DNA of 64,000 bases from positions 8,343 through 72,342 of the forward strand of contig JAJQBS010000086.1 of NCBI GenBank assembly GCA_021203145.1, given 5' to 3'. A model generated the notes under the pieces. That model did no database searches, was not told the DNA's origin, and saw nothing but the letters and a program-made list of their open reading frames with translations. Of the stretch, positions 38,742-60,800 are shown one piece after another. The position numbers and the translations under genes were made by a program. Positions within the stretch are counted from its first letter, which is position 1, and each line of letters starts with the position of its first letter. Origin of the DNA: Lachnospiraceae bacterium. GTDB taxonomy: Bacteria; Bacillota; Clostridia; Lachnospirales; Lachnospiraceae.

Positions 38742-39022
38742 AACACCCTCGCCGGGTTTTGCCCCCAGTCTTTGATTGTGGGGCGCGGGCATCCCACGCT
38801 TCGCATGGGATATGCCTTGCCCGGCCCTGCGCATCAGACAGCAATGGCTCCGCGATCGCGGAGCCAGCTTCCCCTTCCGCCGGGAATCAGGCGGAGTATG
38901 AATTGTAAAGTATTCAGCAGTCAGAGTACTGCCATGCAGAAATCCTGAGCGTCTGCCAACCGCGAAGCGGTTTTGGAATGGCAGACGCGATCTGCCACCG
39001 GGCTTGGGCGAGGGGCGTTTCC
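38742..39022. repeat. Multi-hairpin intergenic element (REP/MITE-like)
   Basis: Hairpins at 38791-38811, 38845-38866 and 38949-38988; imperfect terminal IR AAACACCCTCGCC / GGCGAGGGGCGTTT. Confidence 0.45.
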
Positions 39023-39043
39023 ACTTCCGGGCTTTCACCCCAT

Positions 39044-39859: not shown

Positions 39860-39998
39860 TAGCAACGGGTGCGGAAAATATATCGTAAATCTCTTCCATA
39901 CCGAACGTGTCCGGGAATTGACACCTCGGCGGCCGGATTTTTCGTTTCACGGCGACTCCCCATCCAATGAACACTTAACGCATAGATTCCTACTTCAC
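39860..39998 (-). ncRNA. THF riboswitch with enlarged internal insert
   Basis: AGUAGG..AUGCGUUAAGUG...GGAUGGGGAGUCGCC...AACGAA...CCGCACCCG upstream of folT. Confidence 0.8.
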
Positions 39999-40017
39999 TA
40001 TTATTTACTTAAGGTGG

Positions 40018-49746: not shown

Positions 49747-49763
49747 GATCCAATGGCTCCCAT

Positions 49764-49865
49764 GTCAGTACACTTTCTCTGTCAGTACACTTTCTATGTC
49801 AATACACTTTCTCTGTCGGTACACTTTCTATATCAGCATACTTTCTCTATCAGTACGCTTTCCCT
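49764..49865. repeat. 6 x 17-bp direct tandem repeat
   Basis: Consensus GTCAGTACACTTTCTCT; units start at 49764, 49781, 49798, 49815, 49832 and 49849. Confidence 0.9.
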
Positions 49866-50872
49866 GCCAGAATCTCTTTGTAATCCTTCAGATTCTTTTC
49901 CAGCAGTGTCGGCGTGTCCAGGTGATAAGGGCATTTCGACTTACACTGATTGCAGTGCAGGCATTCCTCGATTTTCATCATCTTCGTCTGCATTTCGGGC
50001 GTCAGCTGCGCGTCAGAGGGCGCCCGGCGGATCATCAGAGACATCCTTGCGCAGTTGTTGATCTCAATTCCGGCGGGACATGGCATACAATACCCGTAGC
50101 CCCGGCAGAATTCTCCCATCAGCTCCTGGCGGTCTTTTTCAATCAGAGCGCGAATATTCTCCGTCATTACCGGAGGACAGACTATGTAAGAGAGGAACTC
50201 CTCCAGCTCGCTCATCCGCTGTACACCCCAGATCGGGAGCACATTGTCAAACTGCGACTCAAACGCATAGGCCGCCGCGGAATTCGTAATCAGGCCGCCG
50301 GAGAGCGCCTTCATCGCAATAAAGCCCATATCCTGCTCCTTACAATCAGCCACCAGTTTTTCGTCCTCCTCGGTCGCCAGATAGCAGAACGGAAACTGAA
50401 GCGTCTCATACAGGCCGGACGCAACGGCCTCTCGCGCCACATTCTGCCGATGGTTTGTGATGCCGATATGCCGGATTTTCCCCTGCTCTTTCGCCTCCAG
50501 CATGCACTCATAGACACCGCTCTCATCGCCAGGCTTCGGGCAGAAGGACGGGTTGTGAAACTGATAAATGTCCAGATAATCCGTTTTCAGATTTGTCAGA
50601 GTCGTTTCCAGATCCTTCCAGAAATTCTCCGGCGTCACCGCTGCTGTCTTTGATGAAATATACACTTTTTCACGCACATCCGCAAGTGCCAGCCCCAGCT
50701 TGTGCTCGCTGTCCGTATAAAAACGCGCCGTATCGAAAAATGTCACGCCGTTTTCATATGCCCTGCGGATAATTTTTACCGCATCCTCATCACTGACCCG
50801 CTGGACCGGCAGTGCGCCGAATCCGTTTTTATTTGTCACAATCTCTGTCTTTCCAAGTCTTACTGTGTCCAT
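49850..50872 (-). CDS. Aldo/keto reductase with Fe-S domain (second copy)
   Basis: MDTVRLGKT, FDTARFY, CRGYGYCMPCP (first Cys pair altered), CLHCNQCKSKCP. Confidence 0.88.
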   Translation of the reverse strand: MDTVRLGKTEIVTNKNGFGALPVQRVSDEDAVKIIRRAYENGVTFFDTARFYTDSEHKLGLALADVREKVYISSKTAAVTPENFWKDLETTLTNLKTDYLDIYQFHNPSFCPKPGDESGVYECMLEAKEQGKIRHIGITNHRQNVAREAVASGLYETLQFPFCYLATEEDEKLVADCKEQDMGFIAMKALSGGLITNSAAAYAFESQFDNVLPIWGVQRMSELEEFLSYIVCPPVMTENIRALIEKDRQELMGEFCRGYGYCMPCPAGIEINNCARMSLMIRRAPSDAQLTPEMQTKMMKIEECLHCNQCKSKCPYHLDTPTLLEKNLKDYKEILAGKAY

Positions 50873-50918
50873 CCTTCTCCTCCTTCGTCTCTTTGACCAA
50901 ATGAATGTCTCCGCCTGA

Positions 50919-52128
50919 CTAATTTCCCCGCTCCGCCACAAATGGCTTCAGCTCCTTATACAGCTTCTGGTCATGACCGGCCTGTTGATATTTCTTTTTC
51001 AGATTTAACCTCGGCCTTTCTCCCCTTTGCCGTTGTATCAGGTATCTTCCCAACAACACGAAGGGCACAGCCGGCATCAAAACCGCATGCTTCTCGCACG
51101 GGGGCCAATGCTCCCTGCAGGCACTCCCCAACACCTTGATAAAGCTGGTAACTCTATTCGAAGAATATGGATCATTAAATAACCGTTCCCCGTATTTTTC
51201 AACCTTTCTCCCAAAGTTTCCTTCTTTCAGTATCTGGTCTATCACTTTTTGCGCCGTTTCACTGTCATACCGCATCGCCCAGGGCGCATTTTCTTCCGGC
51301 AGCCGCAGGTAATCCACACAGGCTCTTGTCATAAGTCCTGTGAAGGTAAGCAGGCCAAACGCCGAAAGCTGCGGCTGCAGCTTTGCCCACAGGGTGTCAT
51401 CCATCTTTTTTTTCTACAAACACCGCCCAGTCACAAAGCTGCCGCAATCCCAGGCCGCTGGTCGTAAAGTGTTCCAGCTTGTGCAGAATCAAAATAATGG
51501 CCTGATGCTCATCCGACGGAACCGGCAGGCCGTCCATAAACTGCCGTCTGTCGATTGCATCGCTAAAATAATTTCTAATTCTCCCCAGAATTTCAGAGTT
51601 ACCATCAAGGAACAATCCGTTCGGTTCTTTATGAACCTCCACAGCAATCTCGTCCTTGTGCAACGTCATATGACAATGGTGTTTTTCGTCCAGAACATCG
51701 CCATAACCGTTAGCCTGGAGGGCTTTCACGGCCTCCATCTGCTGCTCCGGCCTTACAAGCAAGTCGATGTCGCCCATAATGCGCAGAGACGGTTGTGGAT
51801 AATTGGCAGCTGATGAACTGCCTTTCAGTATCACGCAGGGAATGGACGCCGCAGTAAGGAGCTGTATCACCTGCTCCTGCTCATACAGGAGCTGCTCATT
51901 GTTCATGATATGCCGGAACGAATCCTGCTCCCAGCGAATCCCCACATCATCAGGGACGGAGCCCCGTTCCTCATCAGAAAGCGTATCCCAGATCAGAAGC
52001 GAAAGCGCCTGATTTGACGCCTCATGATAAAGAGCGGACCAGTCCACAGCGGATGGTTCAAAATCCGCAGGTGTGCCAAATAAAGCCCTGCCCGTAAGCT
52101 GTAATAAGGCCTTTTCTGTTTTGTTCAT
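50919..52128 (-). pseudogene. Nucleotidyltransferase (NTP_transf_5 type) split by a +1 frameshift in an A8 run
   Basis: ILKGSS..YPQPSLRIMGDIDLLV, EVH, GLRQLCDW; 8 T on the + strand at 51406-51413; removing one base joins ...VEKK-MDDTLW into a single ORF. Confidence 0.8.
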
Positions 52129-52213
52129 TCGGATGCACCTCCCTTACGCAACGCATATAATACCGATCACCCTTAAGCCCTTAACCCATAAGTTTCTAAC
52201 CCTTAAGCTCCAT

Positions 52214-54529
52214 CTATACATCCTGCATGCCTCCATTTTGTTCCCCGACCGGATTTTTTCCTTCTTTGCCCTGTATCATTTCCTCAACCGGATTTTTTCC
52301 TTCTTTATCCTGTATCATTTCCTCAACCGGATTTTTTCCTTCTTTGCCCTGTATCATTTCCTCAACCGTAATCTCTGAGTGTTCAAAGACCAGTCTCTTG
52401 CCGCAGATCTCCATCGCCGCCGGTCTGTGGGTCACGATCAGCACCGTCCGGCCGCCCATTTCTTTCAGGTTCTTCAGCAGCCTGTGCTCCGTATCCTCAT
52501 CCAGTGCGGATGTCGCTTCGTCCAGTAGAAGGACAGGAACGTTCCGGTACACAGCCCGCGCTATCGCTATTCTCTGCATCTGTCCCTCAGACAGGCCGGC
52601 TCCCTTTTCGCCGAGAACCGTATGATAGCCGTTCGGCAGCTCTCTGATAAACTCATCCGCGCAGGCAATTTTGCAGGCCTGCTCCACCTTTGTCTTCTGC
52701 TCCTTCGTATATGGGGCGGAGTGCAGAAAGTCCACAGCCTCATAAATACTGCCGGACATCAGCATATTCCCCTGAGGAACATAGGAGAACCATCTTCTTG
52801 TTGCAGGGGATATCTCTATCCCGCCATTCGCATACAGTCTGCCGGACACAGGTGAATATATGCCAAGCAGGATTTTCAGCAGCGTACTCTTGCCGATGCC
52901 GGAGATACCGGTCAGTGCGACAATATCGCCTTTTTCTATATCAAACGTCGCACCGCTGATGACTTCTTCCTCGCCGTCATCATAGATGAATGTCAGGTTT
53001 TCGGCATGGATTCCTGTGAAGTCAGGCAGTTCTTTTGAGGCTCGTTCCTTCGGCAGCTTCTCTATCTCAATCAGCCGCTCCGCGGATGCGAGCATGGAAT
53101 AATACTGCGGTACAAAACCGGAGATGTTGGCGAACGGGCTTCTGATCTGGCTGACCAGCTGCAGCACAGCGGTCATCGTCCCATAGGTCAGTGTGCCGTT
53201 TAGTATGCCGAACCCGCACCAGACTAAGCCAAAGAGATAGCTGCCCTGCATCACGCCGCCGAAGCCGAGGTTGCAGATATTGGAGAAGGTTCTTCTCTTC
53301 ATACGGGCTTTCTTATGCGCTGCGGCTTTTTCCTCTGTTCTGGCTGACGCCATTTCTTCCGCTTCAAAGCCTTTCAAAATTAAAAGGCTCTCTACGGATT
53401 CCTGCAGCCAGGAGCGGAGCTTCCCGTCTGTCTCCTGTACTTCTTTATGCAGGCTTTTCATTCTGCGGCGAAAGAGGAACGTCACACCCAGCATAACAAG
53501 CCCGCCAACAAGAAAGATACTGCCAAAACGCCAGTCAAGCACCATCAGGATAACCAGTGCGCAGACAAGCTGAACCGCCATCGACGCCACACCGGGAATA
53601 ATTTCCGTCGCATAATCCGCTACAATCTTCACATCACTGGTCATGCGGTTTTGAAGCTCTCCCGTATGGTAAGCTTTCAAACCGCTGTAGGTGCCATGAA
53701 GGATGTTGTCATAGGTATGCTGTTTCAGCCTGTTTTCCAGTGAGGCTCTTGTCGACTCGTCCACCTGCCGGATCACGGCACGGAGGAGCAGCTGTATAAG
53801 TATAATTCCGAGGAATACGCCGCTCCATTGAAGGAATTCGCTCCTGTCAAGGGCGACAGCGTAATCAATCGCATTGCGCATCACAAGCGCGAGAATAACC
53901 GAAAAAAAAGCCGTAACACCCGTACATGCAGTCAACAGCAATATTCCTGCGAGACTGCCCTTCACCATTTTTGCAACCCAGCCGAGGGAGGAATCGCCGA
54001 GAATGCGTTTGCCCACAGAAACAGCGCCTGCTGTCATTTTGTGTCTGAGCAGGCGCAGGGGATAGATAAAATTCCAGAGCCAGACATACAGACAGTACCG
54101 TGTATCTGTCGTTTTGATTTCCCGTTCTCCCCACAGTCTGCCCTTCCCTCTCCAGCAGCTCTCCATCACACCTTTTACAGCGGAGAGCGGCACCCGCTCA
54201 ATAGCGAAGGTATTATCGCCGCGGATGAGACACACGTCTCCGCCAAAGCCAATTATGCGGTGGAGCACCTGGGTTCCGTCGGGTCGGACATACAGCACCA
54301 CATCATTCTTTTGAGGTCTGCCCTCCAATTTTCGAATCAGCACATGGGAGGACCAGGTATAGAGAAGCGGCCGCATACTGACACCCTTAATGGGAATCAC
54401 AATAAAGCCGGAGGCTTCCAGCTCATCCAGCTTGGTTGTCTGTGATGTTTGGTTTTGCCCTTCGCTTCGGGTCTGTGATGTTTGGTTTTGCCCTTCACTC
54501 TGGGTCTGCGACGCCTGCGTCTGTTCCAT
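52214..54529 (-). CDS. S24/S26 serine peptidase fused to an ABC exporter (TMD+NBD)
   Basis: KGVSMRPLL, DVVLY, VLHRII, RGDN; then TM domain, GISGIGKST, LSEGQMQR, LLLDEATSALD; single uninterrupted ORF. Confidence 0.88.
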   Translation of the reverse strand: MEQTQASQTQSEGQNQTSQTRSEGQNQTSQTTKLDELEASGFIVIPIKGVSMRPLLYTWSSHVLIRKLEGRPQKNDVVLYVRPDGTQVLHRIIGFGGDVCLIRGDNTFAIERVPLSAVKGVMESCWRGKGRLWGEREIKTTDTRYCLYVWLWNFIYPLRLLRHKMTAGAVSVGKRILGDSSLGWVAKMVKGSLAGILLLTACTGVTAFFSVILALVMRNAIDYAVALDRSEFLQWSGVFLGIILIQLLLRAVIRQVDESTRASLENRLKQHTYDNILHGTYSGLKAYHTGELQNRMTSDVKIVADYATEIIPGVASMAVQLVCALVILMVLDWRFGSIFLVGGLVMLGVTFLFRRRMKSLHKEVQETDGKLRSWLQESVESLLILKGFEAEEMASARTEEKAAAHKKARMKRRTFSNICNLGFGGVMQGSYLFGLVWCGFGILNGTLTYGTMTAVLQLVSQIRSPFANISGFVPQYYSMLASAERLIEIEKLPKERASKELPDFTGIHAENLTFIYDDGEEEVISGATFDIEKGDIVALTGISGIGKSTLLKILLGIYSPVSGRLYANGGIEISPATRRWFSYVPQGNMLMSGSIYEAVDFLHSAPYTKEQKTKVEQACKIACADEFIRELPNGYHTVLGEKGAGLSEGQMQRIAIARAVYRNVPVLLLDEATSALDEDTEHRLLKNLKEMGGRTVLIVTHRPAAMEICGKRLVFEHSEITVEEMIQGKEGKNPVEEMIQDKEGKNPVEEMIQGKEGKNPVGEQNGGMQDV
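52248..52368. repeat. 3 x 39-bp coding tandem repeat (EEMIQ(G/D)KEGKNPV)
   Basis: Units start at 52248, 52287 and 52326. Confidence 0.92.
54438..54512. repeat. 2+ copies of a 33-bp coding repeat (QT(Q/R)SEGQNQTS)
   Basis: Units start at 54438 and 54471, with a partial unit at 54504. Confidence 0.85.
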
Positions 54530-54570
54530 GCCGCCGTCCCCTCCTTTCTCCTCCGACTGTTCCAGGCCGT

Positions 54571-54849
54571 CTATTCCGTCAAAAACCCTGCGTCCGCCAT
54601 TTCCTTTATCATCGACTTCACATCGTCGGCGATATATGCACGGTCTTCCCCGGTCTTTGCGCCGCTCTTTTCCGCAAGTATATTCACAATTTCCTCTTCG
54701 GTCCTGCCGTCGGCAATGCCCTCCCAGATAATTTTGCCGGTCTCATTGAGCTTGACCATACCGTGAAACTCACGGCTGGCCTGTCCTGTGGCAACCACCA
54801 CATACTTGCCTGCCACCTTGCGGATAACAAATCCTTTTTTAACCTTCAT
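54571..54849 (-). CDS. PqqD-family RiPP recognition element (RRE)
   Basis: MKVKKGFVIRKVAGKYVVV...LNETGKIIWE...DVKSMIKEMADAGFL; GGGAGG RBS (alternative ATG at 54855). Confidence 0.92.
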   Translation of the reverse strand: MKVKKGFVIRKVAGKYVVVATGQASREFHGMVKLNETGKIIWEGIADGRTEEEIVNILAEKSGAKTGEDRAYIADDVKSMIKEMADAGFLTE

Positions 54850-54952
54850 TTCCATATTCCTCCCGTTTCGTTTTATTGTCCCGGCATGCGCCAGAGTTTA
54901 TTAAATTCTATATTGAAAATATCCATTCCGCTTCCTCTCGCTTTTCATCTTT

Positions 54953-54971
54953 ATTATATCAGTTCACTGAT
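54953..54971 (-). promoter_or_regulatory. Extended -10 promoter with palindrome upstream of the RRE operon
   Basis: TGaTATAAT (54961-54953); ATCAGT-TC-ACTGAT (54958-54971). Confidence 0.5.
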
Positions 54972-55035
54972 GTAATTTCCATATCGTTTTAGAATTTTGA
55001 GTGAAGCTGTCTCACACCGGCTGTCTGTACTGTAG

Positions 55036-55073
55036 AAATCCCCTGCAACCAGCCTAAACCGGCTACAGGGGAT
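55036..55073 (-). terminator. Terminator after the peptide array (duplicate of 57674-57710)
   Basis: ATCCCCTGTAGCCGG-loop-CTGGTTGCAGGGGAT, G-U pairs valid on the minus strand. Confidence 0.75.
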
Positions 55074-55077
55074 CGTC

Positions 55078-55226
55078 TCAGTTCCTAATTACTTGGTTTT
55101 TCATGTTGTCTACTTCTGGATTAATATTTTCTGTTCCTCTTTGGTCATCATAATTTGACTAGCATACCACCGATACGAGCTGATCTTTTCCCCAAATAAA
55201 ACTACTCACCTCTTGTGCTTCTGACA
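55078..55226 (-). pseudogene. Decayed tenth peptide gene of the array
   Basis: No ATG; reads CQKHKR*VVLFGEK, then in another frame YDDQRGTENINPEVDN, matching the leader and the C-terminal xxxPEVxD pattern. Confidence 0.55.
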
Positions 55227-55231
55227 CCTCA

Positions 55232-55357
55232 TCACTCGTCGTCCTCTAAGACTGGAAGATCAGGGCCTTCAACCGCTCCTTCGCCTAAATTTTCACGCGC
55301 TACAACAAAAACGTTCGTCTCATACCGAATGATTTCCAATTCAAGTTTTTCATACAT
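55232..55357 (-). CDS. Array peptide I, 41 aa: MYEKLELEIIRYETNVFVVARENLGEGAVEGPDLPVLEDDE
   Basis: AGGAG RBS; family leader. Confidence 0.85.
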   Translation of the reverse strand: MYEKLELEIIRYETNVFVVARENLGEGAVEGPDLPVLEDDE

Positions 55358-55373
55358 AATGATTTGTCTCCTA

Positions 55374-55496
55374 TCAGTCATCGTCCGGCAAAACTGGCTC
55401 AGGATCTGTTGAGGTTCCACTTTCACCTACGCCAGACACAACAGCAAAGGGCATTTTCTCATAACGGATAACTTCCAGCTCATGTTTCTGGTACAT
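55374..55496 (-). CDS. Array peptide H, 40 aa: MYQKHELEVIRYEKMPFAVVSGVGESGTSTDPEPVLPDDD
   Basis: Purine-rich RBS (GAGAG); family leader. Confidence 0.85.
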   Translation of the reverse strand: MYQKHELEVIRYEKMPFAVVSGVGESGTSTDPEPVLPDDD

Positions 55497-55548
55497 AATT
55501 GCTCGTCTCTCAACTATCTATCATCACGCAAAGCTGGCTCGAAATCTG

Positions 55549-55680
55549 TCAGCCACCCCAACTTTCTTCTTCATCTTCTTCAACTTCTTCCTCTTCTTCA
55601 ACAGACAGCTCTGGACCACTAAAAGCCCAGGCACTGTTTTCCTCAAAGCTTATAAGCTTCATCTCAAATTTTTCATACAT
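55549..55680 (-). CDS. Array peptide G, 43 aa: MYEKFEMKLISFEENSAWAFSGPELSVEEEEEVEEDEEESWGG (probably frameshifted near its end)
   Basis: AAGGAG RBS; an alternative frame continues GWLTDFEPALRDDR* to 55514. Confidence 0.8.
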   Translation of the reverse strand: MYEKFEMKLISFEENSAWAFSGPELSVEEEEEVEEDEEESWGG

Positions 55681-55698
55681 AATGTCTCCTTTTACCTT

Positions 55699-55818
55699 TC
55701 AGTCATCATCTGGAAGTACTTCCATTTCTTCACCAGATACAGTTCCCTGATCTACTCCTTCGGCAAACACAGCGGTTTCGTCGAAGCTTATAACATCTAG
55801 CTCGTGTTTCTTGTACAT
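55699..55818 (-). CDS. Array peptide F, 39 aa: MYKKHELDVISFDETAVFAEGVDQGTVSGEEMEVLPDDD
   Basis: AGGGGG RBS; family leader. Confidence 0.85.
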   Translation of the reverse strand: MYKKHELDVISFDETAVFAEGVDQGTVSGEEMEVLPDDD

Positions 55819-55831
55819 ACCGTCATACCCC

Positions 55832-55960
55832 CTATGAATCCGTCAGATCCGGCCCAATGCTGTCATAACTCCACCCAGTATCGCCGCCATCAGTATAACT
55901 GCACACTACAAAGATATTCTCTTCGTAGAGGTTAATATCCATCTCGTGCTTCTGATACAT
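55832..55960 (-). CDS. Array peptide E, 42 aa: MYQKHEMDINLYEENIFVVCSYTDGGDTGWSYDSIGPDLTDS
   Basis: AAGGGGTG RBS; family leader. Confidence 0.85.
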   Translation of the reverse strand: MYQKHEMDINLYEENIFVVCSYTDGGDTGWSYDSIGPDLTDS

Positions 55961-55973
55961 ACCTGTCACCCCT

Positions 55974-56096
55974 TTACTCAACCACATAGGAAGGGTCGTA
56001 GCTTTCTACTTCCATGTTGCTTCCGTCTTCAACAATCCATGCACATGCCTCATTCTTATCAAACAGTATTACTTCAATTTCGTGTTTTTGGTACAT
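55974..56096 (-). CDS. Array peptide D, 40 aa: MYQKHEIEVILFDKNEACAWIVEDGSNMEVESYDPSYVVE
   Basis: GAGGGGTG RBS; family leader. Confidence 0.85.
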   Translation of the reverse strand: MYQKHEIEVILFDKNEACAWIVEDGSNMEVESYDPSYVVE

Positions 56097-56110
56097 AGCC
56101 ATATCACCCC

Positions 56111-56242
56111 TCACTCGTCGCTGATATCCGGATCGACGGAATGAACGACGATTCCGCCACTCTCATCTCCGCTTACCCCAAGATCCGCAAACACACAATT
56201 TTCATCAAACAATATTATCGACATAATATGCTCTGTATACAT
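56111..56242 (-). CDS. Array peptide C, 43 aa: MYTEHIMSIILFDENCVFADLGVSGDESGGIVVHSVDPDISDE
   Basis: GGAGG RBS; family leader. Confidence 0.85.
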   Translation of the reverse strand: MYTEHIMSIILFDENCVFADLGVSGDESGGIVVHSVDPDISDE

Positions 56243-56285
56243 CTTATTGCCTCCGCATCATGAATACGCATGTTCTGTTTCCAAC

Positions 56286-56417
56286 CTATATATCGCTTAC
56301 TTCCGGTTCCACACTGAACTGATCCCACCCGGTACTTCCACCGTCTGATTTATCAGCATTTACAAACATATTCTGCTCATCAAACTCGATAACTGTCAAC
56401 TCATGTCTCTCGTACAT
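56286..56417 (-). CDS. Array peptide B, 43 aa: MYERHELTVIEFDEQNMFVNADKSDGGSTGWDQFSVEPEVSDI
   Basis: GGGGAG RBS; family leader. Confidence 0.85.
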   Translation of the reverse strand: MYERHELTVIEFDEQNMFVNADKSDGGSTGWDQFSVEPEVSDI

Positions 56418-56446
56418 ATTCGCGTCTCCCCGTATTGCGTCCAAGC

Positions 56447-56575
56447 TTATATGTCGGATGGTTCGTCCGGGATGCTGTACTGATCTTCTCCTTCTTCGCC
56501 ATCAGATGCCCAGGACATAACATAAGCATCCTCTCCGTCAAACTCTGTAACACTCATTTCGTGTGTATCATACAT
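56447..56575 (-). CDS. Array peptide A, 42 aa: MYDTHEMSVTEFDGEDAYVMSWASDGEEGEDQYSIPDEPSDI
   Basis: GGAGG RBS 8 nt upstream; family leader. Confidence 0.85.
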   Translation of the reverse strand: MYDTHEMSVTEFDGEDAYVMSWASDGEEGEDQYSIPDEPSDI

Positions 56576-56791
56576 CTCATATTCCTCCACAGCCTGAGCG
56601 ATAATATGCCTCTCTTTCCGTAACCCTCCGTATCCTCAGTTCAGGTCTATTATATATAAAGCCTTTTCCCGCAGATGTACGGCATTTGGCATAAAAACAG
56701 CACACCTTCTACCCAAAAAATGCCTGCAGCCTCCGATAAAGTCTGGCAGTTTCGAGTTATTTCGGGTATCCTTCTTGTACAGAAACCTTTC

Positions 56792-56899
56792 GTTTCTCGT
56801 ATTGTCGAATATGTCTCTGAACGCAACCTCACATATGACGTTATATCACAAGGGGCTCGGAAATACAAGATGTTTTTCTGTGAAACATTTACTAAAATT
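56792..56899 (-). promoter_or_regulatory. 108-bp promoter module driving the array (inverted duplicate of 62419-62526)
   Basis: TTGTAT-N17-TATAAC (56868-56840); 87/108 ungapped identity to the right-hand copy by hand alignment. Confidence 0.7.
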
Positions 56900-56942
56900 G
56901 TCACAGGTCTCACCCTGACCAGATTTACATTTTTTTTGCCAC

Positions 56943-57647
56943 TCACTTCATGTCATTTATTCCCCTGTACGCCACAAGAGCCGCCTCACGTGACATATTA
57001 CATTTCAAATTAAAAATCGGCACCTCACGAATCAGCCTGTCCATCAGGTCAAGCTGTTTTATCATCTGCTCAACATCCTCTGGCAGAAGTACCTGATTGA
57101 ATATCTTATCAAGAACTTTATCTGTATCTGCAAGAGCAATCTCATTTTTCGCCCCACGCTCCAACAGGCATATCGCTTTCAGCGGGACAATTTCCGCACA
57201 CCCGAGCCGTTCCTTACCGTGCCAGGGTGTGCCGCAGACATAGAATTTATCGTTCATAAGCCTAATCATCGGCTTGTCGCCATTTATTAATACTGCCCGA
57301 TTTCCAAATTCCTGCATCCAGTAATTTGCATGTGTGGATTTTCCCGTCCCGCCGGGAGCAGTGAACACATAACCCTCGCCGTCTACAGCAACAACAGCGG
57401 CATGAAGAAGAAAGGCATCGTATTGAAGCATTCCTATACTCACCTTGCGGTACAGGCAGTTGCTTTCACAGTCAGCAAAGCTAAATTCGCCCTTTAGCCT
57501 GTCGTATTCTTCCTGAACCTCTTTTTTCGTGGCAGACACAATAAAGAGAGGAGAAGCCGACACGATGTGTTCCTCACAATTCCACTGGGAAAGGGGATAC
57601 TTGTTATTTATACCGACAGGAATTCCAGCTATATTCAGCGTTGTCAC
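56943..57647 (-). CDS. HPr-kinase-like P-loop protein (ScmC/lasso-kinase-like)
   Basis: GGAGG RBS and GTG start; LLHAAVV, TAPGGTGKST, INGDKP, GTPWHGKE. Confidence 0.75.
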   Translation of the reverse strand: MTTLNIAGIPVGINNKYPLSQWNCEEHIVSASPLFIVSATKKEVQEEYDRLKGEFSFADCESNCLYRKVSIGMLQYDAFLLHAAVVAVDGEGYVFTAPGGTGKSTHANYWMQEFGNRAVLINGDKPMIRLMNDKFYVCGTPWHGKERLGCAEIVPLKAICLLERGAKNEIALADTDKVLDKIFNQVLLPEDVEQMIKQLDLMDRLIREVPIFNLKCNMSREAALVAYRGINDMK

Positions 57648-57673
57648 AATGCATCCTCCTTGCCATAAAGTAC

Positions 57674-57710
57674 AAATCCCCTGCAACCAGCCTCAAGCGG
57701 CTACAGGGGA
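57674..57710 (-). terminator. Terminator after solo peptide K
   Basis: 35/37 identical to 55036-55072; both differences lie in or beside the loop. Confidence 0.75.
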
Positions 57711-57736
57711 CAATTACTTTTCAACAGTCAGATTTT

Positions 57737-57865
57737 TTAAATCTCAACGTCAGGAATGCTGTCAGCAGACCAGTCATCGTCATCTCCTTCATTATAACTA
57801 CACACAACAGAAGCGTCCTTTTCACTAATATAAATAACTCTCATTTCGTACTTTTCATATAACAT
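57737..57865 (-). CDS. Solo family peptide K, 42 aa: MLYEKYEMRVIYISEKDASVVCSYNEGDDDDWSADSIPDVEI
   Basis: AAGGAGG RBS overlapping the surface-protein stop codon; shares VVCSY and W-S-x-D-S-I-P-D with peptide E. Confidence 0.88.
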   Translation of the reverse strand: MLYEKYEMRVIYISEKDASVVCSYNEGDDDDWSADSIPDVEI

Positions 57866-57877
57866 GCTTTTGCCTCC

Positions 57878-60800
57878 TTAGTCTTCGTCTGTAGTCGAAG
57901 TAAGAACTGTTTGCGTCGTTCCATCACTGCATGAAAATGCTGTCTCTGTTCCATAAATCGTAGTTCCGTCCTGCGTTGTCCAATAGGGCACAACTGAGAA
58001 GGAAGTAGCCTTAGATGTATCATAATAGCGTCCCGTCACAACAGCCGTTGCTGAACTGCTGAACGTGGAAGGCATAAATGTCGCCACAGGGCTACTCGAC
58101 GTGCCGCAGACTTTATAGGAGCTTGTATGATACGTGACAGATGTAATTGCATTCTCGACCAGTGTACCATTTATGTACAAATTAAAGCCTGCATCAGCGT
58201 ACACAAAAGCCTGGCTCGTAAAGAATCTCAGTGCGTTCTTTTCATCATAGGGTGTAAAGAAGCATGATACCGACAGAGTATTTGCATCAACGAACATTGC
58301 GTAATATGTAGTATCCGTATCCGATCTACTCCACATTTTGTTTGAGCAGGCTGTGTAGCCACCATCCTCGTCAAGAGTGAACCATCCTGCGAAGATATAA
58401 CTGCCGCTGTCACTGCTGCCCTCAGTAGGTGTGTAAGTCAAATCCGTTGTCGGGTAGTTAGTAGTGCCGTATTTGCTGATATCCGAGCTGCTCACGCCGA
58501 CATAAATGCTGCCGGTACCGTAGTTGGCTATAGATGTTGCATTCACCGACACCGATGTTGTGGTTTCACCATTGTCACCAGACGCACCGAGAACCAACTG
58601 CTCAACAGTGTATGTACTGTTATCATTAGTTACCACATAACAACCGCCTGCGAGATAACTTGTCGGGTCGGACGTATACGTACCGCCAGAGATTTCAAGC
58701 GTGCCAGTGGTTACACCTGCAAATGTGCCTGTATAAGTTCCCGATGTCAGTTCCAACGTACCTGCTGAAACGGTGCAAAGCTTAACTGTTGATGTCTGCC
58801 TATAAAGTGCACCTGCCTTACTTTCGCTGCTGTCTACAACAGTAACGGTAATACCCGATGTTGCTACTTTTATAGTGCCGGTACTGCTTGTAGATGTATA
58901 AGTACAGCCGTTTAAGTCAATGGTCATGCTGACTGTCGGTATCATGGCTGTTGAATAGGTGTGGTCATTTAAAGCTTTTACAGTTATTGTTTCACTGCCA
59001 TCCAAGTCCATGCTGTTAGCTGCGGTAACTGCAGCAGATAAGGTAGCATAATAAGTTGTATTTTCTCCTATAGTAATGCTTGCGTTTGCTGACTCTTTTG
59101 TAACACCCTGATAAACGGTAACTGTATTATATTCTTTTTCGTCATATGTCACAGTGTCGGTCGTCGAAAGAAGCTCATATCCCGTTGAACCGTAGCACGC
59201 AAAGTGAGAAGTATAGCTCTGCGCCTCTGTGCTTAATTCGTTTTCCATTAACACAAGTGTGTAGCCGGTAGTATTAACCTTTACATCTGTGACTTCATCA
59301 AGCGCAGCATAGAGATATATAGTTCCACTATAGCCGGAGAAATACGTTGTGTTGAACGCATTGTCCGCATCTGTAAAATAAACAGTTCCATACGTAGTCT
59401 CCCGCATCGCCTCATATGACCATCCGGAAACATCTTCGGCAACTGTAAAGATTCTGTTCGATAATTCTCCATTGTAATCGCCATCAAACAGCAATGAGTA
59501 CTCTGTCGAAGCAAGATATTTTGGATATACCGAATAGCCCGTAAATGTACCACCTGTAATGTAGCAATTCTGTGTATTTGTATTGGCATTATATTGGTAG
59601 CTTCCTATCAACGAACTAGCCACAGCGGTTCTGAGATTATAGAAAGTGCCGCCGTTGATAGACACAATACCTGGATACGACGAGCTTGTTCCAAATATTG
59701 CTGAACTGTATGAATAAATCGTACCGCCGTTCACAGTCACTGTGCCAGCATTGATAATCGCACCTTGCTTAGAACTTGCACCCTCTGCCAAATTCTTTAT
59801 AATACCGCCGTTGATAGTAAGAATGCTGTCCGGCTCATTCTTAATGCAAGACAAACAATCACTTATGAAGGTACCGCCATTTACTGTCATCGTACCGCCG
59901 TAATTGCGAATCATGGAAGAATTGTTATCAACCTCCGGCGATGTTTCTACAGTGACACCGGTATTGAAAATCATTTTACTATTGGAACCTTCATTTACAA
60001 TGGTATACCATGTACCGGAGCCACGAGAAAACGTACCGCCGTTCAGGATAACTTCGCCCTGATTGTAAAGAGCCGCCGTGCTTCCTACGGTTGCTATAAC
60101 CTTGCCGGTTCCCGCAACGGCCTCGCTTTCTTCGGTTGCAGTAGTGGCGCTGCTATCTTCAATTGTCAAAGTACCGTAGTTTGCAATTGCATGACTGTTA
60201 TCAGCAGTGATTGAGTATCCTGCCAAGTTAAGGATAATGGTCTTACCACTTTCAACGACAACATCTTCCTCCACATTAGTGAGCAAAGTCACAGTGTCGC
60301 CGCTCGTTGCTGCATTGATAGCGGATTGAAGAGTACTGTAAAGGGTGTCGCCAACCTTTGCAACGCCGGCTCCTACCCAAACGGTCTTGTCGTCCAGGGA
60401 GGAAATATAGTAATTTCCACTCACCGTTGCCGCATCACCTTTTGTGTCAAATACACCATAACCATCTGCCAAGATGGAAGCTACCAGGTCAATCCCCTTT
60501 GTTGCGGTATAGGTGCCGCCTGTGACTGACACAGTGTTGTTTTCACTGGAACGAGCAAGCAAAGCAATGTCATAACCAGTGAACGTGCCGCCGGAGATGC
60601 TTCCAGATACAGTTACATCAGTATCAAACACAAGCGCACGAGAGCTGCTCGCACTGATTGTGCCACCGGAAATGTTCACAGTTCCGCCCTTGACCAAAAC
60701 AGCCTGAGATGCACTCGATGATGCTGTCACAGTTCCGCCGGTCATTGTGAACGTTCCGGAGGTTGTAATGGCTCCGGTCACTGTTCCGCCTGATACAGTC

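Follow-up and report, generated by a model that had tools for sequence, protein, structure and literature searches.

A surface-protein gene paired with a precursor-type peptide gene in a locus resembling the clusters for linear polyphosphorylated peptides

Linear polyphosphorylated peptides (LPP) are encoded in Bacilli by clusters of the type lppA-K-B-S-D-N (Popov et al., Nat Commun 2026, PMC13381572). Their enzymes are the HprK-like kinase LppK, LppB as recognition element (RRE) of a peptide that is made on ribosomes and modified after translation (RiPP), the SipW-type peptidase LppS (S29, H68, D93), the MsbA-like exporter LppD and the nucleoside triphosphate (NTP) transferase LppN. One to three precursors per cluster carry the leader motif YxxPxVLxHQxIxFETxxS. 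The RRE presents the leader to LppS, the cut falls after F-E-T, and Ser3 of the core takes several phosphates. No function is known for LPP, whose clusters are found near capsule loci and have no known direct partner; surface proteins, Clostridia and arrays are not mentioned in the LPP paper (PMC13381572). Here we describe an LPP-like locus in a window of 64,000 nucleotides (nt) from a Lachnospiraceae bacterium (assembly GCA_021203145.1, contig JAJQBS010000086.1, positions 8,343 to 72,342), in which the gene of a large surface protein is directly followed by the gene of a small acidic peptide, K.

Surface-protein gene and K make up a two-gene module that is conserved, its stop codon, ribosome binding site (RBS) and start codon lying within about a dozen bases. 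The peptide genes lie together with genes of an LPP-like RiPP pathway, and a conserved stem-loop is situated just before the enzyme genes. Membership of the peptides in such a pathway was absent from the first-pass annotation of this DNA. On balance we favor the view that K is an LPP-like precursor which is co-expressed with, and probably serves, an anchor-less surface protein. The list of open reading frames (ORFs) of the window places every gene of the locus on the minus strand:

62227-57878 (-): surface protein, 1449 amino acids (aa); Sec signal peptide, acidic E/T/S-rich linker (~180 aa), long GGT-rich beta-repeat region and C-terminal module
57881-58600 (-): C-terminal module, ~240 aa; two immunoglobulin (Ig)-like beta-sandwich domains with an invariant YIFAGW motif (AlphaFold, Foldseek and alignment)
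57866-57880 (-): junction TAA-GGAGG-CAAAAGC, stop codon and Shine-Dalgarno (SD) sequence of peptide K
57737-57865 (-): peptide K, 42 aa, MLYEKYEMRVIYISEKDASVVCSYNEGDDDDWSADSIPDVEI; match to the family profile with E=2.9e-16
57676-57711 (-): stem-loop 3' of K, 14 pairs, 25 nt before the kinase start (fold prediction and scan)
56943-57650 (-): HprK/ScmC-like P-loop kinase (LppK-like) with GTG start; TIGR04249 1.8e-7, TIGR04352 and TIGR04355 weak
55232-56584 (-): array of nine family peptide genes of 39-46 aa, each with its own RBS (ORFs and profile)
55073-55228 (-): decayed tenth peptide copy of K/E type (VSEAQEVSSFIWGKDQLVSVVC*SNYDD..INPEVDN), colinear with the K unit at 58% identity (z=2.5)
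55039-55072 (-): second copy of the stem-loop, closing the array (repeat search and fold prediction)
54571-54855 (-): PqqD-type RRE (LppB-like), PF05402 1.9e-12
52214-54529 (-): SipW/S26-like peptidase fused to an MsbA-like ABC exporter, 771 aa (LppS-LppD fusion); ABC_membrane, ABC_tran and weak Peptidase_S26
50919-52128 (-): PF14907 nucleotidyltransferase (LppN-like), 2.5e-42, split into ORFs of 243 aa and 161 aa

Enzyme genes and described pathways

The enzyme set of the locus equals LppK/B/S/D/N, with a candidate for LppS. The kinase gene, whose GTG start is preceded by AAGGAGG, matched TIGR04249, TIGR04352 and TIGR04355 over the P-loop region, all below cut-off, with the best score for TIGR04249 (ScmC; 30.8 vs 125). 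Kinase homologues of the relatives L040 and L041 are annotated as PF27840 ScmC; such names are our own handles for loci (L), genomes (G) and contigs (C). By its sequence matches the kinase would be assigned to the HprK-like (LppK) type. The PqqD protein also matched the lasso-type PqqD family NF033530 (1.3e-6) and qualifies as a discrete RRE. The exporter showed ABC_membrane (1.1e-27), ABC_tran (2.1e-25) and MsbA-family matches, so that it corresponds to LppD, and the PF14907 transferase corresponds to LppN. The N-terminal 190 aa of the exporter gave a weak Peptidase_S26 match (residues 45-111, E=0.011, 16.1 bits with a cut-off of 22.9). This region contains the motifs GVSMRP, VLHRI and GDN, and a candidate pair S51..H90 chosen by eye has the same 39-residue spacing as S29..H68 of LppS. 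The exporter gene also carries repeats: a 33-nt tandem at its 5' end (54438-54503; SQTxSEGQNQT twice) and a 39-nt unit three times at its 3' end (52241-52368; EEMIQGKEGKNPV three times).

As in LPP, the N-terminus of the precursors is conserved (Y-x-x-.., ..I-x-F-E..) while the C-terminus varies, and their genes stand in a cell-envelope context. Both systems are also devoid of a lasso cyclase and a B2 protease. On the other hand, the putative peptidase is fused to the exporter, the arrays comprise 9 to at least 45 precursor genes instead of 1-3, and the cores are short (~20-27 aa) and very acidic with the C-terminal motif S-[IVL]-x-P-D-x-S-D-x. In contrast to LPP of Bacilli the hosts are Clostridia (Lachnospiraceae and Oscillospiraceae), and each gene for a surface protein with the C-terminal module carries its own precursor gene.

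Two other pathways are related. The phosphorylated lasso peptides paeninodin and pseudomycoidin (PadeK/PsmK, B1 RRE, PsmN) have in common with the locus an HprK-family kinase, whose target is, or here would be, a precursor Ser, a PqqD RRE and a PF14907-type transferase. Yet a lasso cyclase (Asn-synthetase-like) or a B2 transglutaminase-like protease was found neither among the ORFs at 49850-62227 nor in L028, L031, L040 and L046 by tblastn and gene tables; thus, unlike lasso peptides, the products would be linear. The SynChlorMet cassette (ScmC, PqqD-like ScmD and two radical S-adenosylmethionine (SAM)/SPASM enzymes; TIGR04249) likewise pairs the best NCBIfam match of the kinase, ScmC, with a PqqD homologue. 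It differs by its radical SAM enzymes, none of which is present here, and the ScmC score is far below cut-off. Literature searches on ScmC/SynChlorMet and on HPr kinase with PqqD and signal peptidase returned nothing on this system.

As to the distribution of the enzymes, the kinase of an Oscillospiraceae metagenome-assembled genome (MAG; G307:C6:278135-278833) is 82% identical to that of the window, while the best value in the window's own bacterial family is 72%. The closer relative suggests horizontal transfer of the enzyme cassette.

The surface protein-peptide pair

The surface protein is very acidic with a pI of 4.05 computed from the sequence, has no match in Pfam and NCBIfam scans and is without any known wall anchor. 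Its C-terminal module was modelled by AlphaFold as all-beta with two Ig-like sandwiches at a predicted local distance difference test (pLDDT) score of ~90; Foldseek returned only generic two-Ig-domain chains. In an alignment of relatives the module is conserved with 37-63% identity and invariant motifs. A word-index protein search with it yielded only one relative.

The end of the surface-protein gene reads GAC GAA GAC TAA GGAGG CAAAAGC ATG with the stop codon at 57880-57878 and the start of K at 57865. The ATG is thus located 12 nt past the stop codon and 7 nt separate it from GGAGG. The first-pass annotation had placed the RBS of K at the surface-protein stop codon as an overlap. GGAGG does follow TAA immediately; it abuts the stop codon without overlapping it, across a 12-nt gap. 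The 1:1 stoichiometry deduced from this arrangement was an over-reading, because K has a strong SD sequence of its own, which suggests at most coupled, not necessarily equimolar, synthesis. The features that may point to translational coupling are the 12-nt gap and the strong SD sequence in the window; in relatives the genes overlap or are up to 53 nt apart.

One genome per species was scanned with the C-terminal domain, which gave 11 loci. At each locus not cut by a contig end the peptide profile detected a family peptide directly downstream. For a census of paralogs the carrier genomes were searched with an 11-sequence profile of the C-terminal module; they contained up to four such genes each, every one with its own peptide. 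In total there are 19 complete C-terminal-module genes, from 10 genomes plus a metagenome contig; 19/19 have a family peptide downstream at a gap of -8 to +53 nt, each with a GGAG-type SD sequence. This count of C-terminal-domain proteins with downstream peptides supports, at the level of gene linkage, the earlier proposal that the peptide functions with the surface protein. The idea that the peptides might supply partners for paralogs elsewhere was not borne out: the genome has no paralog of the C-terminal domain, and genomes with 2-4 paralogs have a peptide for each.

Six of the 19 junctions have TAA immediately before GGAG(G/A); the junction TAAGGAGG of the window recurs in L028, L030, L040 and L039, and one more, that of L024, reads TAAAGGAGG. 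Other tight junctions are TGAtATG in L031, an ATGA overlap in L033/L058 and an 8-nt overlap in L065. In the metagenome relative L040 the surface protein is followed by a 41-aa peptide, then by ScmC and PqqD. Genome G250 was chosen solely for a 65%-identical kinase, and its locus shows surface protein, peptide, PqqD, kinase and S26-ABC in this order. Because the selection used the kinase homologue only, the G250 locus represents an independent prediction of the pairing.

Kinase and PqqD are not adjacent in 8/17 evaluable pairs, with kinase homologues encoded in 8/8 genomes tested. Hence the surface protein and its peptide are a tighter unit than the peptide and the enzymes. A fragment of a surface-protein C-terminus precedes a second peptide in L028 (L028/L052:2573-2710), and a truncated 5' end of a kinase gene follows the first hairpin in L031 (L031:3671-3775). 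Both are remnants of duplication. The peptide family is rare, with occurrence in 2/301 genera of the window's bacterial family and 23 clusters, all unnamed, in 5.8 billion proteins.

In the Oscillospiraceae loci L036 (4953-5567), L037 (5329-5982) and L038 (4928-5572), where the peptides end in ..YFG, ..LFG or ..LYGQ, a conserved protein of ~210 aa follows surface protein and peptide. Its features are a membrane span at the N-terminus, a region rich in Thr/Ser and the C-terminal motif ...VATES.D...WGPL[FY]. G165 encodes an acidic lipoprotein at the corresponding position. The ~210-aa protein may be a third partner.

Peptide family, stem-loop and array

Family statistics were obtained from 107 unique peptides gathered across all loci. 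Their mean length is 42 aa and their mean charge -7.4. Conservation covers the first 20 residues (M-Y-E-K-H-E-M-E-[IV]-[VI]-x-F-[ED]-E-x-D-V-F), the middle is variable, and the C-terminal motif is S-[IVL]-x-P-D-x-S-D-x; Y3 is present in 100/103, F/Y13 in 103/106 and a penultimate D in 95/107 peptides. The same core types reappear in different genomes, in many cases better kept than the leaders, as in one example with a core identity of 0.91 vs 0.43 for the leader, and EGAVEGPDLPVLEDDE is identical in G165. Because the cores are conserved between genomes above the leaders, the C-terminal halves appear to be the selected, functional parts. Surface-linked peptides share core types with array members: that of L028 is of E type, that of G165 corresponds to member 2 and that of L033 to member 4.

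K aligns with all nine array peptides and is closest to the fifth, E. The likeness of K and E noticed earlier was confirmed: VVCSY and W-S-x-D-S-I are common to both, with 40-48% amino-acid identity and 71% nucleotide identity over 55 nt. K is the most diverged member of the family. It has I13 and S19 in place of F/Y, ends in VEI, not SD-x, and its best core match is 0.48. K is nonetheless a real member of this family of strongly acidic, precursor-type peptides of ~42 residues.

The stem-loops behind K and behind the array are nearly the same. A repeat search aligned 57711-57676 and 55072-55039 with 38/41 identical positions. The value of 35/37 given by the first-pass annotation is exact over the 37 nt TCCCCTGTAGCCG[C/G]TT[G/T]AGGCTGGTTGCAGGGGATTT, where both differences are in the loop. 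None of 100 shuffles gave any such match, and the genome of 3.5 Mb contains only these two copies. Fold prediction gave the two hairpins -34.8 and -36.2 kcal/mol (z-scores -6.0 and -5.6). The U-tract after both hairpins is poor (ATTTGTACTTTA and ATTTCTACAG); a terminator scan passed the K copy with 5 T in 8, while the array copy did not pass. An Rfam scan gave no match within the locus, and a look for transcripts yielded no usable RNA run, with 17% of the sampled words in one contig-only run. A scan for consensus promoters placed none between the K hairpin and the kinase start. Because the kinase gene begins only 25 nt downstream and no promoter was detected in between, the K hairpin should not be a complete terminator, i.e. 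termination would be partial. The most economical reading is that the stem-loop is probably a leaky terminator or a 3' stabiliser which raises the structural products over the enzymes. Leaky hairpins after the precursor gene are found in RiPP operons of the nisA, mcjA and capA type, and the strong stem-loop directly after the precursor gene and ahead of the enzyme genes is alike here.

Two features set the locus apart from these operons. Its stem-loop follows a bicistron of surface protein and peptide, and the sequence of the stem-loop itself is conserved. A near-identical stem-loop, ATCCCCTGTAGCCGGTTGAGGCTGGTTGCAGGGGATTTGTAC, follows the surface-linked peptides in L030, L031 (twice) and L040, with a variant in G165 and L028. 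In 40-nt bins the stem-loop of L030, L031 and L040 is 92-97% identical to the window copy, while the DNA of surface protein and peptide upstream is 40-55% identical; the kinase gene downstream is 66-95% identical in L040, and at the second L031 copy the kinase protein is only ~30% identical. Sequence conservation of 92-97% is more than a plain terminator accounts for. From these comparisons the stem-loop appears to be a conserved, system-specific element at the border between the variable structural module and the enzyme genes, and a protein-binding or recombination role is possible.

The first-pass annotation derived the array from a unit of peptide and terminator. Duplication of this unit is supported. 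The 156 nt from the last array gene to the array hairpin are colinear with the K unit in an alignment, and one frame reads ...KDQLVSVVC*SNYDD..INPEVDN, a decayed peptide of K/E type. That the array is closed by the same stem-loop follows from its last part, a decayed K-type unit of peptide plus hairpin. L031 has two units of peptide plus hairpin. Origin of the whole array from the unit is not established. The same core types occur in the same order in arrays of other genomes (L042, L044), so that the arrays should be old and the direction of copying, from K to the array or the reverse, cannot be inferred from the order. Arrays of 13-14 genes are present in L041, L044 and L045, and those of L041 and of G165 contig C50 are without an adjacent surface-protein gene. 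In L042 (3730-9700) at least 45 family peptide genes extend up to the contig end behind PqqD, an 80%-identical exporter and a coiled-coil-like protein of 320 aa.

A further repeated element of 112 nt flanks the module:

56792-56903 (-): promoter-bearing 112-nt element (TTGTAT-17-TGtGATATAAC), aimed at the array; arm of an inverted repeat, partly kept in G165
62415-62526 (+): second arm of the inverted repeat (80%); its promoter faces away from the surface-protein gene, toward an IS66 remnant

The array promoter element is thus an inverted, 80% identical copy of the element upstream of the surface-protein gene. It has only these two local copies in the genome, and each arm bears an outward-facing promoter TTGTAT-17-TG-n-TATAA(C/T). 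A genome-wide repeat was rejected as a reading of the hairpin as well as of the 112-nt element, given only two local copies of each. An invertible segment between the arms was likewise dismissed for want of a functional rationale, as inversion would switch neither of the outward-facing promoters. The second arm (62415-62526) faces the IS66 remnant and the contig end. Split ORFs of an IS66-family transposase (window positions 62736-63998; L026) adjoin the locus, with the contig end ~900 nt past the window. Mobile-element genes are also found beside relatives: Rpn-like in G165, a resolvase in L041, an integrase in L044/L045, and a phage-like YopX with a helicase-like ORF in L040.

Possible role of the peptide

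The arrangement of the genes suggests the following course. The surface-protein gene and K would be transcribed together and their translation linked. The stem-loop would pass only part of the transcripts into the kinase gene, giving a surplus of structural products over enzymes like that of many RiPP operons. If the pathway works in the manner of LPP, PqqD would bind the N-terminal leader Y-x-x-H...[IV]-x-F-[DE], the kinase would phosphorylate a serine of the peptide, and the peptidase-exporter would cut off the leader and export the acidic core. Outside the cell the processed peptide might act jointly with the two Ig-like domains at the C-terminal end of its own surface protein, a step for which synteny is the guide. 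The peptide could act as ligand, adaptor or anchor, because the surface protein is without a known wall anchor.

Several results weigh against the view of K as an LPP-like precursor serving the surface protein. The LPP leader motif is not present: the Pro position is taken by His in 82/105 peptides and never by Pro, the leader is three residues shorter, and the spacing from Y to F is 10, not 13. Because this defining motif is missing, we regard the locus as an LPP-like variant, not as a strict member. PDB sequence searches with the kinase and the PqqD protein gave no useful match to a solved RRE or kinase. In the PF14907 gene an A8 run (51397-51420 (-), GTAGAAAAAAAAGATGGATGA) has one A too many, which shifts the frame. 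With A7 the frame would continue with VEKKMDDTLW; slipped-strand switching, mutation or an error in sequencing could account for the split. K, for its part, differs from the consensus at three positions that are otherwise highly conserved, and it may be in decay. Finally, the C-terminal module was joined to the peptide in AlphaFold2 runs, with the in-frame TAA read as Q, for K of the window and for the canonical L028 peptide, which has a deeper peptide alignment. Neither run docked the peptide on the module, and the peptide was left unplaced at a pLDDT of 40-59. Strand complementation and direct docking were therefore rejected for both constructs. Module (pI about 4) and peptides are both acidic, which makes simple electrostatic binding unlikely. 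The models thus lend no structural support to docking of the peptide in its unmodified, full-length form, and it is synteny, not modelling, that suggests a physical partnership of peptide and module. Any such partnership would probably be one of the processed, modified core, and cations might take part.

The main rival explanation is that K is merely the first precursor gene of a peptide operon, with a surface protein that is co-regulated, e.g. for envelope or biofilm purposes, without direct partnership. The failure of docking and the acidity of both partners agree with this, as do the arrays of L041 and G165 contig C50, which have no surface-protein gene beside them, and the LPP clusters of Bacilli near capsule loci without a known direct partner (PMC13381572). 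However, co-regulation alone would not require strict gene-by-gene pairing. The 19/19 pairs include 8 far from the enzymes, every paralog has retained a peptide of its own (-8 to +53 nt), and L028 retains a surface-protein remnant even before its second peptide. We therefore consider co-regulation without partnership possible, though not likely.

The other explanations carry less weight. An unmodified peptide could be an intracellular or co-translational chaperone, or donate a beta-strand to the C-terminal domains, independently of the RiPP enzymes. Linked translation, the 8/17 pairs without adjacent enzymes and the alternating hydrophobic pattern of the conserved N-terminal part, typical of a beta-strand, would fit. 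Yet AlphaFold modelled both Ig-like domains as complete without the peptide, which remained unplaced, the surface protein leaves the cell unfolded via Sec, and the surface-linked peptides are of the same core types as the array precursors adjoining PqqD and exporter; such a role is improbable. The layout of a giant secreted beta-repeat protein, a linked small gene, arrays and mobile-element neighbours also recalls polymorphic toxins, where the C-terminal domain would be an effector, the small gene an immunity protein and the arrays orphan immunity genes. But the C-terminal module is conserved, not polymorphic, and has a plain two-Ig-like fold, so that the pair does not have the character of toxin and immunity protein, and the small peptides share leader and C-terminal motif and lie with RRE, kinase and peptidase-exporter. 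We regard a toxin system as very improbable. Least credible is stop-codon read-through fusing the peptide to the surface protein, for which we see hardly any chance. In the window, L028, L030, L039, L040 and L069 the peptide does follow in frame 4-5 codons after a single TAA. In-frame arrangements, however, occur in 8/19 loci (two with further stops) as compared with 1/3 expected by chance, which is no enrichment; other loci overlap out of frame, and every peptide has its own SD sequence and start codon.

Taking K as an LPP-like precursor that serves its surface protein, we put forward one more specific proposal, tentatively and as the less probable part. The exported, phosphorylated and possibly further decorated peptide might be the cognate extracellular ligand or wall anchor of the Ig-like domains. 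This would amount to a sortase-independent display in which each surface protein has its own RiPP-type adaptor, and the arrays with 9 to at least 45 core types might offer a choice of alternative adaptors. The description of LPP-type peptides dates only from 2026 and explicitly leaves their function unknown (PMC13381572); the strict pairing leads to the testable hypothesis that the modified peptide serves the surface protein. If the adaptor proposal were true, the LPP class would gain a first biological role. Several variants of the pathway come with these findings: the leader of Y-x-x-H type, the fusion of peptidase and exporter, arrays in which dozens of core types are conserved, and the stem-loop peculiar to the system. 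As the hosts are Lachnospiraceae and Oscillospiraceae MAGs, the findings could matter for the way in which surfaces are built or varied in these bacteria.

Two RNA elements of the window are unrelated to the pairing: a tetrahydrofolate (THF) riboswitch is predicted at 39861-39999 (-) with 64.6 bits and a GA-cis RNA at 38945-39026 (+) with 44.1 bits. Five to six tandem 17-nt repeats at 49762-49863 adjoin an aldo/keto reductase gene.

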